Virus record (IMG/VR): IMGVR_UViG_2751185969_000006
Reading direction: 5' to 3' (one strand)
From: a virus
Taxonomy: Duplodnaviria > Heunggongvirae > Uroviricota > Caudoviricetes
DNA length: 7,380 nt
A program made the translations under genes and the position numbers. The notes beneath the pieces were generated by a model, which ran no database searches, had not been told where the DNA came from, and saw nothing but the letters and a program-made list of their open reading frames with translations. Positions 1 to 7,380 of this stretch are shown here, in pieces; position 1 is the first letter of the stretch; every line of letters starts with the position of its first letter.

Positions 1-140
1 CGCTGGCGATCATGGACGTTAACCAAAACGCGGTGGTCAGTGCGATGGAAAAACATCAGGTGCAATGGCTGATCCACGGACATACCCATCGCCCGGCGGA
101 CTTCCGGTACCGGCAGATGGAAAAGTATCACACCGGATGA
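1..140 (+). CDS. lpxH: 3' end of an LpxH-like (UDP-2,3-diacylglucosamine hydrolase) gene entering from upstream of the window; host-like only to about nt 99, then 13 unrelated codons and a TGA stop
   Basis: Codons starting at nt 3 translate to [32 protein letters not shown], which matches my recollection of the E. coli LpxH C-terminal region including the GHTH metallophosphoesterase motif. From nt 99 the frame reads [13 protein letters not shown] and stops at TGA 138-140, where native LpxH would continue for about 40 more residues. Identification is from memory, not a search. Confidence 0.5.
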
Positions 141-141
141 T

Positions 142-708
142 GTGCGTCCGATGCTCGAGCAGATGGTGACGGATGCCGTGAGTCATATCCCCGTTCCGCG
201 CGACGGTCGTGACTACGATCCGGAAGTTCTGCAGAAGGCGGTTCTGGATGCGGTGAGTGCCCTGCCGGCTCCACAGGACGGGCGTGATGCCACGGCACTG
301 GAAATATTCCCGGCGATTGATGAGCAAAAATCCTTTCCCCGGGGCACGTATGCCACACACCAGGGCGGACTCTGGCGGGCGTATGAAAAAACGCACGGGA
401 TGCGGGGATGGGAATGCCTGGTTGACGGGGTGGCCGATATTGACGTCAGCATGACCGGCGAACGGTCGTTCACTGTGGTGGTCCGGCAGAGCAGTGGCCA
501 GTGTACGGAAAAAACATTTTCCCTGCCGGTGATGCTCTATCGCGGTGTATTCAGAACCGGCGAAACCTACCACCCCGGCGATACGGTGACGTGGGGGGGC
601 TCGTTGTGGCACTGCAACAGCATGACCGGTGATAAACCCGGAGAAGCTCATTCATCAGGCTGGACCCTGGCTGCAAAACGAGGGCGGGATGCAGGAGGTG
701 GAAAGTGA
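142..708 (+). CDS. Phage structural-module protein of unknown function, probably a 5'-truncated remnant; start is uncertain
   Basis: Long + strand ORF directly upstream of, and 4 nt overlapping, the head-tail connector gene. Its frame is open back to nt 73 with no ATG, and neither GTG 142 nor ATG 151 has a Shine-Dalgarno sequence, so the true N-terminus is likely missing. Protein-like composition with a duplicated P-x-P-x-DGRD motif. Family not recognised. Confidence 0.45.
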   Translation: MRPMLEQMVTDAVSHIPVPRDGRDYDPEVLQKAVLDAVSALPAPQDGRDATALEIFPAIDEQKSFPRGTYATHQGGLWRAYEKTHGMRGWECLVDGVADIDVSMTGERSFTVVVRQSSGQCTEKTFSLPVMLYRGVFRTGETYHPGDTVTWGGSLWHCNSMTGDKPGEAHSSGWTLAAKRGRDAGGGK

Positions 709-1031
709 CAGCATTACTGACACTGGAAGAAATCAAGGCTCATCTGCGTGTTGACCATGACGCGGATGATGACATGCTGATGGACAAGGTTCGTCAGGCT
801 ACAGCTGTGCTGCTGGCCTACATTCAGGGCAGCCGGGATAAGGTAATCCGTGAGGACGGTGAACTGATCCCGGGCGAGGCATTAACCCGGATGAAGGGGG
901 CTGCCATGCGCCTGACCGGGATGTTGTACCGGAATCCGGATCTTGCTGAGCGGGAAGACCTCGTGCAGGGGGAACTGCCGTTTTCTGTGTCCGTGCTGAT
1001 TTACGATTTGCGTTGTCCGACGGTGTTATGA
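705..1031 (+). CDS. Head-tail connector protein (gp6-like / Phage_connect_1 type, 108 aa)
   Basis: GTG start at 705 preceded by AGGAGG (693-698) at 6 nt spacing, overlapping the upstream stop (GTGA). Size, acidic N-terminal region and position immediately before the head-closure gene fit HK97 gp6 / SPP1 gp15-type connectors. Stop TGA 1029-1031. Confidence 0.75.
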   Translation: MTALLTLEEIKAHLRVDHDADDDMLMDKVRQATAVLLAYIQGSRDKVIREDGELIPGEALTRMKGAAMRLTGMLYRNPDLAEREDLVQGELPFSVSVLIYDLRCPTVL

Positions 1032-1042
1032 GGAGGGGGGGG

Positions 1043-1393
1043 ATGGCAATATCTGCAGGTCGTCTGACACAGATGATAAGTGTTCTGAACCCGGTGTTAA
1101 CCCGTAATGCTGCCGGAGAAATGACGGAAGAGTGGGTGTCATGCGGGAAAATTCATGCGGATATCCGGGGCAGGAGCAGCCGGGAGCGGATGCAGTCCGG
1201 TGCGGAAATGGCGCAGGCGGAAATCCGCATCTGGGTGCGCGGTCCGTCAGGACGGAAAATCACGGCGGCGTCACGACTGCATGTGCTGAGCGGCCCGTGG
1301 CGTGACCGAATTCTGAATGTTGTCGGGGGGCCGGTGCCGGATGCGACCGGCGGGCGTCTGGAAATTCTCTGTCGGCTGGGAGGGGAAAAATGA
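1043..1393 (+). CDS. Head closure / head-tail joining protein (Phage_H_T_join type, 116 aa)
   Basis: ATG 1043 preceded by AGGAGG (1031-1036) at 6 nt spacing. The upstream in-frame TTG 1013 and ATG 1028 lack an RBS. Size and gene order match SPP1 gp16 / HK97-type head closure proteins. Stop overlaps the next start (ATGA). Confidence 0.7.
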   Translation: MAISAGRLTQMISVLNPVLTRNAAGEMTEEWVSCGKIHADIRGRSSRERMQSGAEMAQAEIRIWVRGPSGRKITAASRLHVLSGPWRDRILNVVGGPVPDATGGRLEILCRLGGEK

Positions 1394-1836
1394 TCGAAAC
1401 CCTGCTGGATTTTTCGGGGCTTGAGGATATCAGTCGCGATTTGCAGCTTCTGAGTGGTGCGGAAAACAACCGGGTGTTGCGTGAGGCAACCCGTGCGGGG
1501 GCGAATGTACTGAAGAACGAAGTGGTGTCACGGGCACCGGTGCGCAGGGGAAAACTGCGCCGCAATGTGGTGGTTCTTTCCCGGCGTTCCCGCGATGGCG
1601 GGATGGAATCCGGTGTGCATATCCGTGGTGTTAATCCGGACACCGGCAACAGTGATAACACCATGAAGGCGGATAATCCCCGCAATGCCTTCTACTGGCG
1701 GTTTGTGGAAATGGGTACCGTGAATATGCCACCACACCCGTTTGTGCGCCCGGCGTTTGATGTGCGCAGTGAACAGGCAGCCCGGGTGGCGATTGCGCGG
1801 ATGAACCGGGCAATTGATGAGGTACTGAGACGATGA
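1390..1836 (+). CDS. Tail completion protein, HK97 gp10 family (148 aa)
   Basis: ATG 1390 overlaps the upstream stop, with a GGGAGGGG SD-like run just upstream. Basic protein with the conserved C-terminal segment typical of HK97 gp10-like tail components (NMPPHPFVRPAFD). Position between head closure and tail terminator. Confidence 0.75.
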   Translation: MIETLLDFSGLEDISRDLQLLSGAENNRVLREATRAGANVLKNEVVSRAPVRRGKLRRNVVVLSRRSRDGGMESGVHIRGVNPDTGNSDNTMKADNPRNAFYWRFVEMGTVNMPPHPFVRPAFDVRSEQAARVAIARMNRAIDEVLRR

Positions 1837-2177
1837 CGGAGACGGATTTGTACCCACATCTGGCGCATCTTGCGGGAGGGCAGGCGTATCCGTATGTGGT
1901 TCCCCTGCAGGATGGCAGACCCTCTGTATCGTTACCGTGGGTGGTTTTCAGCCTGATTTCATCGGTGTCTGCGGACGTGATGGGCGGACAGGCAGAGTCA
2001 TCGGTGTCGGTGCAGATTGACGTTTATGCGGTGACGGTCACACAGGCGCGTCAGATACGTCAGCAGGCCCGTGAGTCCATCATGTCGCTGGCCCCGGAAT
2101 CGGTCAGTGAAATGCAGGACTATATTCCGGAAAACCGCTGTTACCGTGCAACCCTGGAGTTTCAGGTCACGGTGTGA
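1833..2177 (+). CDS. Tail terminator-like protein (DUF3168 / gpU-analogue position, 114 aa)
   Basis: ATG 1833 overlaps the upstream stop (ATGA). It is the last small gene before the major tail protein gene, which is the canonical tail-terminator position in siphovirus operons. Family assignment is by order and size plus weak sequence recollection. Confidence 0.6.
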   Translation: MTETDLYPHLAHLAGGQAYPYVVPLQDGRPSVSLPWVVFSLISSVSADVMGGQAESSVSVQIDVYAVTVTQARQIRQQARESIMSLAPESVSEMQDYIPENRCYRATLEFQVTV

Positions 2178-2206
2178 CTTTTTCTTTTTTTCTACAAAAC
2201 CCATAC

Positions 2207-2227
2207 CCCGCCGCGTGCGGGTTTTTT
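2207..2227 (+). terminator. Intrinsic-terminator-like hairpin plus T-tract between the tail terminator and major tail genes
   Basis: CCCGC (2207-2211) pairs perfectly with GCGGG (2217-2221) around the loop CGCGT, followed by TTTTTT (2222-2227). An A-rich run lies just upstream (2194-2200). It sits 30 nt after the stop at 2177 and before the SD of the major tail gene. Confidence 0.45.
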
Positions 2228-2243
2228 ATTATCAGGAGGCAGA

Positions 2244-2957
2244 ATGTCTGCTTTGTATGAACGCTCACAGCTGACGCAGGTGATGATTTCATCTGCCCCG
2301 GCGACTGCTGAAACTATGGATAAGGCGGAATATCTGCGCCTGGACTGCACCATCAAGGAAGTCCAGTTCACCGCCGGTCAGAAACAGGATATTGATGTGA
2401 CCACGCTCTGCTCCACAGAGCAGGAGAACATCAACGGTCTGGGGGCGTCGTCTGAGATTTCCATGTCGGGTAATTTTTATCTGAATCAGGCCCAGAACGC
2501 CCTGCGTGATGCCTATGACAATGACTCGTTGTATGCGTTTAAGGTGCAGTTTCCGTCCGGTAAGGGCTTTAAGTTCCTGGCGGAAGTGCGTCAGCACACC
2601 TGGTCATCCGGTACCAACGGCGTGGTGGCAGCAACGTTTTCACTGCGTCTGAAAGGCAAACCGGTGTCCTATGTGGTACCGCTGGCGTTTGTTAAAAAGC
2701 CGGAGGCGAAGCTTACCGTGAATACCGGTGCGCTGCTGACAATGTCAGTCAGTGTCAACGGGGGAACGCCGCCTTATAAATACGCCTGGAAGAAGGATGG
2801 TCAGCCGGTCGAGGGACAGACTACTGACACTTTCAGTAAAGCCAATACGCAGTCAGGTGATAAGGGGGCTTATACCTGCATGGTAACGGATTCTGCAGAA
2901 CAGCCGCAGAGAATTACCTCTGACGCGTGCACGGTAACGGTAAATGGCGCAGGTTGA
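2244..2957 (+). CDS. Major tail protein, lambda gpV-like, with C-terminal Ig-like domain (237 aa)
   Basis: ATG 2244 preceded by AGGAGG (2234-2239). The N-terminal part contains YAFKVQFPSGKGFKF, resembling the lambda gpV YKIRFPNG region. The C-terminal ~85 aa (YKYAWKKDGQPV...GAYTCMVTD...CTVTV) has an Ig-like strand pattern. Lies directly upstream of the G/GT chaperone genes. Confidence 0.85.
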   Translation: MSALYERSQLTQVMISSAPATAETMDKAEYLRLDCTIKEVQFTAGQKQDIDVTTLCSTEQENINGLGASSEISMSGNFYLNQAQNALRDAYDNDSLYAFKVQFPSGKGFKFLAEVRQHTWSSGTNGVVAATFSLRLKGKPVSYVVPLAFVKKPEAKLTVNTGALLTMSVSVNGGTPPYKYAWKKDGQPVEGQTTDTFSKANTQSGDKGAYTCMVTDSAEQPQRITSDACTVTVNGAG

Positions 2958-2970
2958 TAAGGATAATCCG

Positions 2971-3345
2971 ATGGCAAAAGATCTGAAAACACTGGCGCTG
3001 GCCAGACTGTCCGGATTTCGTCATAAAACGGTGAAGGTGCCGGAATGGGGGAATGTCAGCGTGGTGCTGCGCGAGCCTTCGGCAGAGGCCTGGTATCTTT
3101 GGCGGGAAGTTCTTAATGGCGATGATGCGGGTGACGATACCCTGTCGGTGGTGGCAAAAACCCGCCGTAACCTGGAGGCGGATGTGACGTTGTTCTGTGA
3201 TGTTCTGTGTGATAAGGACATGAAACGTGTGTTCACCGCAGATGATCGCGAGCAGGTGCTGGCTGTCTATGGTCCGGTGCATGCCCGGTTGCTGCGTCAG
3301 GCACTGGAACTGATCACCGATGCTGAGTCGGCAAGAAAAAAGTAG
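2971..3345 (+). CDS. Tail assembly chaperone (lambda gpG analogue, 124 aa)
   Basis: ATG 2971 preceded by AAGGA (2959-2963) at 7 nt spacing. The alternative ATG 2944 overlaps the major tail gene and lacks an SD. The ORF ends in the slippery heptamer A AAA AAG immediately followed by TAG (3343-3345), the hallmark of G-type chaperone genes. Confidence 0.75.
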   Translation: MAKDLKTLALARLSGFRHKTVKVPEWGNVSVVLREPSAEAWYLWREVLNGDDAGDDTLSVVAKTRRNLEADVTLFCDVLCDKDMKRVFTADDREQVLAVYGPVHARLLRQALELITDAESARKK

Positions 3346-3650
3346 CCCGCCCGGAAATTCGCTTTCTGATGCGACTTGCGCTCCGTCTGGGGCGCACCTT
3401 ATCCGAACTGCGCCACAGTCTGAGTGCGAGCGAGGCGATGATGTGGATGGAGTTCGACAGGGTGTCCCCGCTGGGCGATGAGCGCGGGGATATCCGTAAT
3501 GCGCAGATCGTGAAAGCGGTTTTCGGGGCGCAGGGGATGAATGTTTCACTGAAGGACGCCATGCTCTGCTGGGGCGAGGATGAGGACAAGCCGGAAGCGG
3601 ATCCTTTTGCGGGACTGGAAGACGCGCTGAGCCTTGCTGCACAGTCATAA
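2971..3650 (+). CDS. Tail assembly chaperone frameshift fusion (gpGT analogue), produced by a -1 shift at 3336-3342 (~226 aa)
   Basis: After a -1 slip on A AAA AAG, reading continues from 3342 in frame 3 with no stop (VARPEIRFLMRLALRL...) to TAA 3648-3650. The downstream ORF has no independent RBS or plausible start context. This is the conserved G/GT arrangement of long-tailed phages. Confidence 0.65.
3336..3342 (+). promoter_or_regulatory. Programmed -1 ribosomal frameshift slippery heptamer A AAA AAG
   Basis: In the zero frame the sequence reads aga AAA AAG tag. The heptamer is identical to the classic dnaX-type slippery site and sits at the penultimate codons of the G-like ORF, directly before its stop. 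Confidence 0.7.
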
Positions 3651-3658
3651 ATGATGAG

Positions 3659-3680
3659 AACCGCTGAGGCGGTTTTTTTT
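3659..3680 (+). terminator. Intrinsic-terminator-like hairpin plus T8 tract between the GT and tape measure genes
   Basis: AACCGC (3659-3664) pairs with GCGGTT (3669-3674) around the tetraloop TGAG, with a run of eight T at 3673-3680. It sits 9 nt after the GT stop and about 18 nt before the tape measure start codon. Confidence 0.5.
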
Positions 3681-3697
3681 CGTCCGGAGAAAGGTGA

Positions 3698-6600
3698 ATG
3701 GCGACGTTACGTGAACTGATTATCAAAATTTCGGCAAATTCGCAGTCATTCCAGTCGGAGATCCAGCGGGCTTCCCGCATGGGCAGTGAATATTACCGGA
3801 CCCTGTAGAATGGCGGGCGTCAGGCTGCCGCAGTCGCCCGGGAGCAGCGACGCGCCCTGGCTGAGCTGAACAGCCAGTTGACGGAAATTCGCGGTTCTGC
3901 TGTCGGAGTGGCTGGCGCATTTGCCGGTGCCTTTGCCACCGGACACCTGATTTCACTGGCGGATGAGTGGAGTTCCGTAAATGCCCGTCTAAAACAGGCG
4001 TCGCAGTCATCCGATGAATTTTCGTCATCACAGAAAGTGCTGATGGATATCAGTCAGCGGACAGGTACCGCGTTTTCGGATAATGCGGCCCTGTTTGCCC
4101 GTTCGGCTGCCTCGATGCGTGAATATGGTTACAGTGCTGATGATGTGCTGAAGGTGACGGAGGCCATTTCGACAGGACTGAAACTGTCAGGGGCTGGAGT
4201 TGCGGAATCCGGTTCGGTGATCACCCAGTTCAGCCAGGCACTGGCACAGGGTGTACTGCGTGGCGAAGAATTTAATGCTGTTAACGAAAATGGCGACCGG
4301 GTGATCCGCGCGCTTGCTGCGGGGATGGGGGTGGCCCGTAAAGATCTGAAGGCAATGGCGGATGACGGAAAACTGACAGCGGATAAAGTGGTCCCCGCGT
4401 TAATCAGCCAGCTGGGGATATTACGTGATGAATATGCGGCCATGCCGGAAACGGTTTCCGGTAGTATCACAAAGGTGGAAAACGCCTTTATGGCCTGGGT
4501 GGGCGGTGTGAATGAGGCCAGCGGCTCGACGAAAACGCTCTCCGGCGTGCTGAATGGTGTGGCCGGACATATTGATAATGTGGCCGCGGCGGCGGGCGTG
4601 CTGGTTGCTGTCGGGGTGGCCCGGTACTTTGGCAATATGGCCGCAGGCGTGGGAAAGGCCACCACAGAGCTGATCGCGGCGAAGTCCGGGACGGTTGCCC
4701 TGGCAGCCGCACAGGCAGATGCGTCTGTTCAGGTGCAGCGTAAGGCGGCAGCTGACGCGCTGGCGGCAGAACGTGCCTGGCAACTGGCACAGGCTGAACT
4801 TGCACTGGCCAGAAACACCAGTGCGGAGGCGCTGGCCACACAGAATGCCGTCGCAAAACGCCGGGCCATGATTGTGGCCAATGCCGCACTGGTACAGTCG
4901 AATCAGGCGGTGGCGGCCTCGAGGAAGGCGCTGGAGAATGCCACGTCGGTTACGGGAATGCTGAAAAGTGGCGCGGCATCCCTGCTTTCGCTTGTCGGCG
5001 GGATACCCGGTTTACTGATGCTGGGAGCCGGTGCCTGGTACACGGTGTACCAGAATCAGGAACAGGCCAGGGAGTCCGCCCGTCAGTATGCATCGACGAT
5101 TGATGAAATCCGGGCAAAGGTACCGGGAATGACCCTTCCGGAACTGGCTGATAATGAGGGTAAAACCCGCGAGGCACTGGAAGAGCAGAATCGTCTGATT
5201 GCTGAGCAGGAAAGTAAAGTCCGGGGACTGAAAACACAGATTGCTGACTATCAGCGCTGGCTGCAGGAAAATCCACAGGGTGGTTCAGGTGCGGAGATTA
5301 TAACCCACGGCCTTGCGGAGGCAACCGGCAGGCTGGCGGTCGAGCAGTCACGCCTGACACAGATACAGGAAAAGGCGAAGTCTGTACAGGAAACGCTGGC
5401 GTCACTGGAATACAACCGTGTGGCGAGGATACGTGAGGAGGCGGCAGAGCAGAACAGGGCATACCAGGCATTACTGCAGACGAATGTTCAGCATACGGAA
5501 TTCAACCGTCTGCTGGGGCTGGGGAATGAACTGCTTCAGCAGCGGCAGGGACTGGTGAATGTGCCGTTACGGCTGCCACAGGCCACTCTGGATGATAAAC
5601 AGCAGAGTGCCCTGACAAAAACAGAGCGTGAGCTGGCCCTGTCCAGACTGAAAGGGGAAGAAAAAGAGCGTGTCCGACTGGGGTATGCGGCGGATGACCT
5701 CGGTTTTGTGGGTGATCCGTATCAGGAGGCGAGACAACGTTATATCAGTAATGCCCTGGAAGCCTGGCGCAATAACGAGGCGAATAAAACCAAATCCCGG
5801 GGTGGAAAATCAGAGACGGAAAAAGCGGAAGACAGTTTTTCCCGGCTACTGAAGCAGCAGAAAGAGCAACTGGCACTGGCGGGTCAGAATACAGAGCTGG
5901 CGAAGCTGAAGTACCAGACAGCGCAGGGCGAACTGAAAACCCTGACGGAGATACAGAAGCAGGAACTGCTGCGCAATGCGGCCCTGATTGACCAGCAAAA
6001 AATCCGGGAACAGTTGCGATCCCGGGAAGAGACCCTGAAGAATGATAATGTGGCTGCGCGTGCATCAAATGAAGCCGAACTGCTGGGGTACGGGCAGGGA
6101 GAACGAGCCAGGGAACGCATGCGGGAGTTGCAGCAGATCCGCGACAGCTTCCGCCAGAAGGATGCGGACCTTCAGTCTCAGTATCAGACCGGGGATATCA
6201 GTGAGGATTTTTACAGACAGGCACGGGCACAGAACGCGCAGTATCTGAGCGAACGCCTTAAGGACCAGGCAGCCTTTTATGCCGAATCGGATGCGCAGCG
6301 TGCGGACTGGCAGAAAGGCTTGCAGGAGGGGCTCAGTAACTGGGTGGACAATGCATCCGATTACGCCTCTCAGGCAGCACAGCTGGCAACGGAGGGGATT
6401 TCAGGACTGGTGAATAACATCACGGAGATGCTGAACGGAAACAAAGTGGAATGGCGCAACTGGGCCTCATCCGTACTGCAGGAAATCTCAAAAGTTCTTA
6501 TGAATGCCGCGATTGTCAACGGAATTAAGACGGCGGCAAACGGTATGTCCGGTGCGGGAGGATTTATTGGCAGCATTGGTGACTGGCTGGGCGGTGCGGT

Positions 6601-6964
6601 GGCCAATGCAAAAGGCGGCGTGTATACCTCGGCAAACCTGAGTGCGTACAGCAACAGCATTGTGGACACGCCCACGTACTTTGCGTTTGCAAAAGGGGCC
6701 GGGCTGATGGGGGAAGCCGGACCTGAAGCCATTATGCCCCTGACCCGGGCGGCGGATGGCTCGCTGGGCGTACGCGCGGTGGGCAGTATGAACGGCAGTG
6801 CCGGTCTGGTGTATTCCCCGGTCTACCACATCGCCATTCAGAATGACGGGGCTAACGGACAGATAGGGCCGGAGGCGGCAGGCAGTCTTGTGCAGCTGAT
6901 TGACCAGCGGGTGCAGGCGGTGATGCTGTCCATGCGACGTGACGGAGGAATGCTGAGTGGCTGA
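3698..6964 (+). CDS. Tail tape measure protein (lambda gpH-like C-terminus), interrupted by an in-frame amber codon at 3806-3808; the longest uninterrupted part is 3809-6964
   Basis: ATG 3698 with a GAGAAAGG SD-like sequence upstream. The N-terminus MATLRELIIKISANSQSFQSEIQRASRMGSEYYRTL is the typical start of enterobacterial prophage tape measure proteins. A TAG follows, then the same frame continues as NGGRQAAAVAREQ... for more than 1000 codons. The protein has a long Ala/Gln/Glu-rich helical middle. The C-terminus (IQNDGANGQIGPEAA...MRRDGGMLSG) resembles the lambda gpH C-terminus (INNDGTNGQIGPAA...MRDGGLFSG). Confidence 0.85.
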
Positions 6965-7298
6965 GATAAAAACGCTGCATCTGGTCCCGCGTGAAGGGAT
7001 GCAGGTGAGTGAGAAACCGTCGGTGGTGAGGGTTCGGTTTGGTGACGGTTATGAACAGCGCCGACCGACGGGACTTAATGCCAGACTGAAGACGTTTCAG
7101 GCGGTGTTCCGGGTGACGGATGAGTCAACCCGGCGCTGGCTGGATGAATTTTTATCCTGGCATGGTGGTTACCGTGCCTTTTTGTGGCGACCGCCGAAAC
7201 ATAACCGGACGGTGAGGGTGGTGTGTCGGGAGTGGAGCGTCACGGATAACGCCCGGTACAGTGATTTCAGCTGTACGATTGAGCAGGTGGTGAACTGA
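6957..7298 (+). CDS. Minor tail protein M (lambda gpM-like, 113 aa)
   Basis: GTG 6957 with GGAGG (6944-6948) upstream, overlapping the tape measure stop. VRVRFGDGYEQRRPTGLNARLKT and the C-terminal EQVVN closely parallel lambda gpM (VRKVRFGDGYSQRAPAGLNANLKT ... EFEQVVN). Confidence 0.85.
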   Translation: MAEIKTLHLVPREGMQVSEKPSVVRVRFGDGYEQRRPTGLNARLKTFQAVFRVTDESTRRWLDEFLSWHGGYRAFLWRPPKHNRTVRVVCREWSVTDNARYSDFSCTIEQVVN

Positions 7299-7380
7299 TG
7301 CAGGATATTCACGAAGAAAGTCTGAACGAGTCGGTTAAGTCAGAGCAGTCACCGCGGGTGGTACTCTGGGAAATCGACCT
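7298..7380 (+). CDS. Minor tail protein L (lambda gpL-like), 5' part only; continues beyond the window
   Basis: ATG 7298 overlaps the M stop (TGATG). MQDIHEESLNESVKSEQSPRVVLWEID matches the lambda gpL N-terminus (MQDIRQETLNECTRAEQSARVVLWEID) as I recall it. Confidence 0.85.
   Translation, partial: MQDIHEESLNESVKSEQSPRVVLWEID

Follow-up and report, generated by a model that had tools for sequence, protein, structure and literature searches.

Tail assembly requires the tape-measure protein, known as gpH in phage lambda, and the amber (sus) mutants of lambda gene H are among the described systems closest to the locus reported here. Defective lambdoid prophages offer a second parallel, a pool of them having reportedly been described in E. 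coli O157:H7 Sakai by Asadulghani and colleagues in 2009. Translational restarts after early amber codons are said to have been observed in lacI by Files, Weber and Miller in 1974 and by Steege in 1977. Finally, certain gut phages carry late genes in which TAG is recoded to Gln (bioRxiv 10.1101/2021.08.26.457843).

The locus described here is a lambdoid E. coli prophage tape-measure gene whose codon 37 is an in-frame amber codon. It lies in a window, the whole stretch of DNA that was analysed, of 7,380 nucleotides. We consider it very probable that the codon is a natural CAG-to-TAG nonsense allele, inherited with the prophage, which inactivates the tape-measure gene and marks a small lineage. 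As in the defective prophages of O157:H7 Sakai, one morphogenesis gene has a point lesion in a prophage that otherwise looks complete and is carried and passed on by the host. Unlike in the Sakai-type pseudogenes, the amber codon falls very early in the tape-measure gene, the lineage is seen in multiple samples and the other late genes are intact. The locus also resembles the lambda H sus mutants, in that the tape-measure gene sits between G/T and M, the mutation is of the same type, and the ancestral codon is Gln, which a supE suppressor would restore exactly. However, the allele comes from clinical and culture-collection isolates and from gut metagenomes rather than from mutagenised stocks, and no suppressor host is implied.

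Gene content of the window

The window covers the head-completion and tail module of the prophage (Table 1), which combines an HK97-type head/connector module with a lambda-type tail module (G/GT, H, M, L, K, I, J). The tape measure of an intact relative contains the Pfam domains TMP_3 (aa 83-273, E-value 7e-56), Phage_HK97_TLTM (aa 411-694, E-value 1e-74) and Tape_meas_lam_C (aa 870-941, E-value 2e-17), and records of the 1028-aa product, for which gene callers choose TTG 3878 as the start, list the same three domains. Both the three domains and the position between G/GT and M/L are those of a lambda-type tape measure. The one departure is that the frame from the conserved Met1 is broken by TAG at codon 37, whereas it is uninterrupted in the relatives.

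Table 1. Coordinates of the features in the window
Feature	Position	Strand	Remarks
Internal lpxH fragment, joined to phage at 99/100	1-99	+	Roughly codons 168-200 of 240
3' part of repeat-containing ORF after portal gene	100-708	+	1-base deletion at about 121
Connector	705-1031
Head closure	1043-1393
HK97 gp10-like	1390-1836
gp17-like tail completion	1833-2177
Major tail protein	2244-2957
Tail assembly chaperone G (Phage_TAC_1)	2971-3345	+	Ends in genuine TAG
T segment of putative G-T frameshift product (Phage_tail_T)	3369-3650	+
Tape measure	3698-6964	+
Tape measure, first 36 codons	3698-3805	+	Native start ATG 3698, SD GGAGAAAGG, pairing -6.6 kcal/mol
Amber codon TAG, codon 37	3806-3808	+	CAG (Gln) in relatives; C-to-T at 3806
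Rest of tape-measure frame, codons 38-1088 and stop TGA	3809-6964	+	Same frame open
Nearest in-frame restart candidates, TTG 3878 and GTG 3908	3878-3910	+	72 and 102 nt after the stop (start to start)
Minor tail protein M homologue	6957-7298	+	PF05939; overlaps tape-measure stop
L			Start of gene only, after M

Upstream of the tape-measure gene, a slippery heptamer A AAA AAG (3336-3342) is located directly 5' of the TAG stop of G, and the sequence read in the -1 frame from this heptamer leads into the T ORF. The ATG of T itself has only weak Shine-Dalgarno (SD) pairing (-3.5 kcal/mol), which fits expression of T by frameshifting. Taken together, these features resemble an intact programmed frameshift of the lambda G/GT type. 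A terminator-like hairpin (3656-3680, GAGAACCGC-TGAG-GCGGTTTTT followed by more T's) is found between T and the tape-measure ribosome-binding site; the fold z-score of its 61-nt segment is only -1.6, and it is absent from the list produced by a simple terminator scan.

The segment 3300-4300 is matched in 1,247 of 5,426 complete RefSeq E. coli genomes, at up to 7 places in each, and in 92 phage records, mostly of Stx-converting phages, at 92-94% identity.

The amber codon and the ancestral codon

The tape-measure frame opens at ATG 3698-3700, preceded by GGAGAAAGGTGA, and runs through 36 sense codons (MATLRELIIKISANSQSFQSEIQRASRMGSEYYRTL) to TAG 3806-3808. Beyond this codon the same frame stays open for another 1051 sense codons up to TGA 6962-6964. 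A frame of 1088 codons with one stop cannot be explained by chance, and this TAG is the sole internal stop across the nine complete genes of the window. An earlier sequence-only reading of this DNA had placed an amber codon 36 codons into the gene with more than 1000 codons following in frame, which is confirmed by reading the sequence. It had further taken the interruption for a single nonsense codon, neither a frameshift nor a gene boundary, and the relatives bear this out by starting at the same ATG and having CAG at codon 37.

Those relatives are SCU-125, CE10, MCJCHV-1, AR_0013 and AF57. All five carry CAG (Gln) at codon 37, and in all five the homologous ATG is the tape-measure start annotated by PGAP. 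The tape measure of the phage record ON470597.1 (vB_EcoS-569R3) begins at the same ATG as well. Since close relatives have CAG at this codon, the lesion is a single C-to-T transition at 3806, in line with the earlier remark that TAG lies one transition from CAG. The sequence context, CTGCAG (a PstI site), is not the CCWGG of a Dcm deamination hotspot.

More distant homologues (60-78% identity over 110 residues) from Klebsiella, Salmonella, Cronobacter and Enterobacter show which part of the protein is cut off. Residues 1-33 are 90% or more conserved among them, more so than residues 38-80, and form the most conserved part of the N-terminus. As to the residue at position 37, about which the sequence-only reading had asked, it is Gln in the close relatives and Q in most of the distant homologues, with E, R or K in the others. 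The segment upstream of the stop is therefore coding and under constraint in relatives. The possibility, raised at the same time, that tape measures of this family begin 3' of 3808 fails, because residues 1-33 are nearly invariant in these homologues. A gene boundary or a true start downstream of the stop is ruled out by the annotation of the relatives together with this N-terminal conservation.

Distribution of the amber allele

The identical TAG is present in at least 16 other assemblies that are 99.9% or more identical to the window. Carriers include E. coli KTE24, CP049609.1, two NCTC assemblies, MDES01000359.1 and the Logan run SRR7133522, and further ones are gut-metagenome contigs from several studies. 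The loci in which this TAG was read are L007-L015, L084-L092 and L097. An exact copy of the 36-aa product is found in 116 indexed blocks of the assembly collection and on 45 contigs, one record being named 'hypothetical protein WEG_01727 [Escherichia coli KTE24]', and the 1028-aa downstream product is indexed in 38 blocks. Of the ten loci retrieved by the 36-aa product, nine have TAG and match window 100-7380 at 99.92-99.96% identity, the tenth being a CAG contig that happens to end at that point.

Among complete genomes, a 71-base query centred on codon 37 found 769 copies in 659 RefSeq E. coli genomes, none of them with TAG, and the best of these matches are one base off the window. The same query found the TAG allele in 0 of 31 phage records. 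A 38-mer with TAG was not found in IMG/VR or in GTDB representatives; the corresponding CAG 38-mer occurs in 67 IMG/VR contigs. The amber allele is reproducible in independent data, is not private to the genome of the window, and marks a small, minor lineage. Its occurrence in clinical and culture-collection isolates and in gut metagenomes lends no support to the suggestion of the sequence-only reading that it might be a suppressible laboratory allele.

State and diversity of the sister prophages

Comparison of 16 other late-gene products with those of AF57 revealed no frameshift or stop in KTE24, CP049609.1 or an ENA contig; the products compared extend from TerS, covered only in part, and the capsid through to J and Lom, J being partial in the ENA contig. 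TerL is full length (553 aa) in the gene calls of TAG loci, including L084 and L085. With these late genes intact and TerL full length, there is no second sign of decay in the lineage. The proposal that the amber codon is an inactivating mutation in a decaying prophage is thus the best fit as far as 'inactivating' is concerned, but with the other late genes intact in the sister assemblies, 'decaying' has no support beyond this one lesion. The closest CAG relatives, AR_0013 and AF57, have a TerL annotated by PGAP as frameshifted (L004 1989-3651 and L005 2151-3813), so that each sub-lineage appears to carry a different single lesion.

From the head genes to the tape measure, members of the TAG lineage show 0-2 differences in about 13 kb. 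What does vary is how many copies of a 162-bp repeat they have, with a resulting ORF of either 353 or 407 aa. In the TAG prophages L087 and L011, parts of the region at ~15-18.5 kb (I/J) show 35-46 substitutions per kb in a mosaic pattern. These substitutions, in prophages that are identical from head to tape measure, indicate recombination at the tail tip around the time when the amber allele arose, or later, and the diversification in repeat number and in I/J indicates that the allele is not of very recent date. Within the lineage, five polymorphisms lie in the tape-measure gene 3' of the stop, four of them synonymous, which is too few to judge selection. The flanks of the carrier loci (±10 kb) are all still inside the prophage.

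Left end of the window

lpxH is essential in E. coli, and a fragment of it occupies the left end of the window. Window 1-99 is 100% identical to lpxH in at least 12 complete E. coli genomes, with 31 records at 99% or more. The junction with phage DNA at 99/100 has no microhomology, and on its phage side lies the final 162-bp repeat unit of the post-portal ORF. It is in precisely this repeat that other assemblies break, and MDES01000359.1 ends exactly at the equivalent of window 7380. A run of five A's at about 121 is reduced to four in the window; this deletion is unique to the window and is its only difference from MDES01000359.1. A 40-mer spanning the junction was not found in GTDB representatives or JGI metagenomes, and neither the lpxH-phage fusion ORF nor the GTG-start portal remnant is on record. 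For the product starting at ATG 151, all contigs retrieved start within the 162-bp repeat and lack lpxH. Given that lpxH is essential, we read the window as a short-read contig with a chimeric end, or as two abutted contigs, rather than as a deletion. The junction is probably an assembly chimera or abutted contig end of this sort, and it should not be taken to show disruption of an essential gene.

In the sister locus L085, the post-portal ORF (5608-6831) contains 3.3 copies of the 162-bp tandem repeat (array 5833-6365). The copy number varies among otherwise near-identical prophages, and the C-terminus of the product gives a sub-threshold match to CBM_5_12. PGAP merges the portal gene and this ORF into a 'frameshifted' pseudogene in every relative, despite an overlap of 4 nt only.

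Probable consequence of the amber codon and alternative explanations

From the analysis we infer an end of translation at codon 37, a loss of function and an effect on tails. A C-to-T transition has turned the Gln codon 37 (CAG) into amber (TAG), and translation from the native start would stop after 36 residues. The most conserved N-terminal motif would then be severed from the remaining tape measure, little or no functional tape measure would be made, and tail assembly would be blocked or strongly reduced. The allele is inherited within near-identical prophages, which are seen in several isolates and gut metagenomes. Since tail assembly needs the tape measure, the prophage should be tail-defective unless the codon is suppressed, complemented or leaky.

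Leakiness, or complementation in trans by a co-resident prophage, is the main live rival, although we regard it as rather unlikely. It holds that UAG is occasionally read through by a near-cognate Gln tRNA, or that a tape measure is supplied by another lambdoid prophage in the same cell, so that some infectious particles could still form and the prophage would be transmissible with reduced efficiency. Several observations agree with this. Sister assemblies show an otherwise intact late region, samples with the allele are many and come from different collections and cohorts, and members of the lineage differ by I/J recombination and repeat number. Assemblies are broken at repeats to the left and right of the segment, a sign that related prophages may share these genomes, and complete E. 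coli genomes that match window 3300-4300 do so at up to 7 places each. Since position 37 tolerates Q, E and R, any residue inserted there would probably be accepted. On the other hand, IMG/VR and the sequenced phage records hold CAG copies but no TAG copy, and the near-clonality of the lineage is equally well explained by vertical inheritance in one host clone. Moreover, the sequence has no feature favouring readthrough, and the stop is not conserved beyond the lineage. The stronger proposal that the amber lineage persists and diversifies through low-level readthrough or a borrowed tape measure, with tails that are conditional and host-dependent, is in our view improbable.

Less probable again is a lacI-like restart, in which ribosomes would reinitiate at TTG 3878 or GTG 3908 and make an N-terminally shortened but functional tape measure. 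The 36-residue peptide would in this case be dispensable or would act in trans. As in the lacI restarts, an early amber codon is followed by in-frame GUG or UUG codons. A product restarted there would keep all three Pfam domains, which lie 3' of residue 83, and the 1028-aa product annotated by gene callers begins at this very TTG. In contrast to the lacI restarts, however, the candidates here are at least 72 nt downstream of the stop and lack an SD, and the lost N-terminal motif is strongly conserved. The list of in-frame starts given in the sequence-only reading (TTG 3878, GTG 3908, GTG 4037 and ATG 4043) is correct, with predicted anti-SD pairing of -1.9, -2.4, +0.4 and -0.4 kcal/mol, respectively. 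The native start reaches -6.6 kcal/mol against a gene-internal background mean of -3.8 kcal/mol, and six other scored genes with their own start range from -6 to -11.6 kcal/mol. The pairing of TTG 3878 and GTG 3908 is thus weaker than the background within the gene, as expected from the claim that they lack an SD, and no nearby in-frame start has ribosome-binding potential. What a restart would lose is residues 1-33, the best-conserved N-terminal part, and no compensating change near the stop separates the TAG lineage from its CAG relatives. In the distantly related phage TP901-1, infectivity is lost when the tape measure has N-terminal deletions, and its first 154 residues are needed (PMC5099701).

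It is highly implausible that TAG is decoded as an amino acid here, whether by phage recoding of TAG to Gln, by a suppressor tRNA of phage or host, or by programmed readthrough. What the locus shares with the recoded gut phages is that a late structural gene has TAG, in frame, where the ancestral residue is Gln, and such recoding of late genes is described for gut phages in the preprint cited above. A recoded phage would be expected to have many in-frame TAGs in late genes and to avoid TAG as a true stop. The locus, by contrast, has one in-frame TAG only among nine genes, and gene G ends in a genuine TAG, which shows that TAG serves as a stop within the same module. A scan that covered the window and 23 kb of three sister loci (L084-L086) turned up no tRNA gene, suppressor or other, and the host, E. 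coli, uses the standard code. Programmed readthrough, for which the stop should be conserved across diverged relatives, is contradicted: the stop is confined to one lineage of 99.9% or more identity and is missing from all divergent relatives, which have Q, E, R or K in its place.

A sequencing or assembly error at 3806 has next to no probability: the window does bear marks of a contig end of low quality, namely the chimeric lpxH stretch at 1-99 and the unique 1-base deletion at 121, but the recurrence of the identical TAG in at least 16 other, independent assemblies, made with different technologies by different groups, excludes the base-call error that the sequence-only reading had allowed for.

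Implications for the prophage family

The amber allele is an ordinary prophage gene inactivation and not a new mechanism. For annotation, it means that a single gene, divided by an amber codon, has been called as two, a 36-aa 'hypothetical protein' and a 1028-aa 'tape measure protein', and that a prophage with the TAG allele should be scored as tail-defective. If low-level readthrough or a borrowed tape measure did sustain the lineage, the allele would represent a natural 'conditional-lethal' state that tunes virion output or makes spread dependent on a helper prophage. Should carriers release infectious particles, they would provide a natural case of helper- or readthrough-dependent phage morphogenesis.
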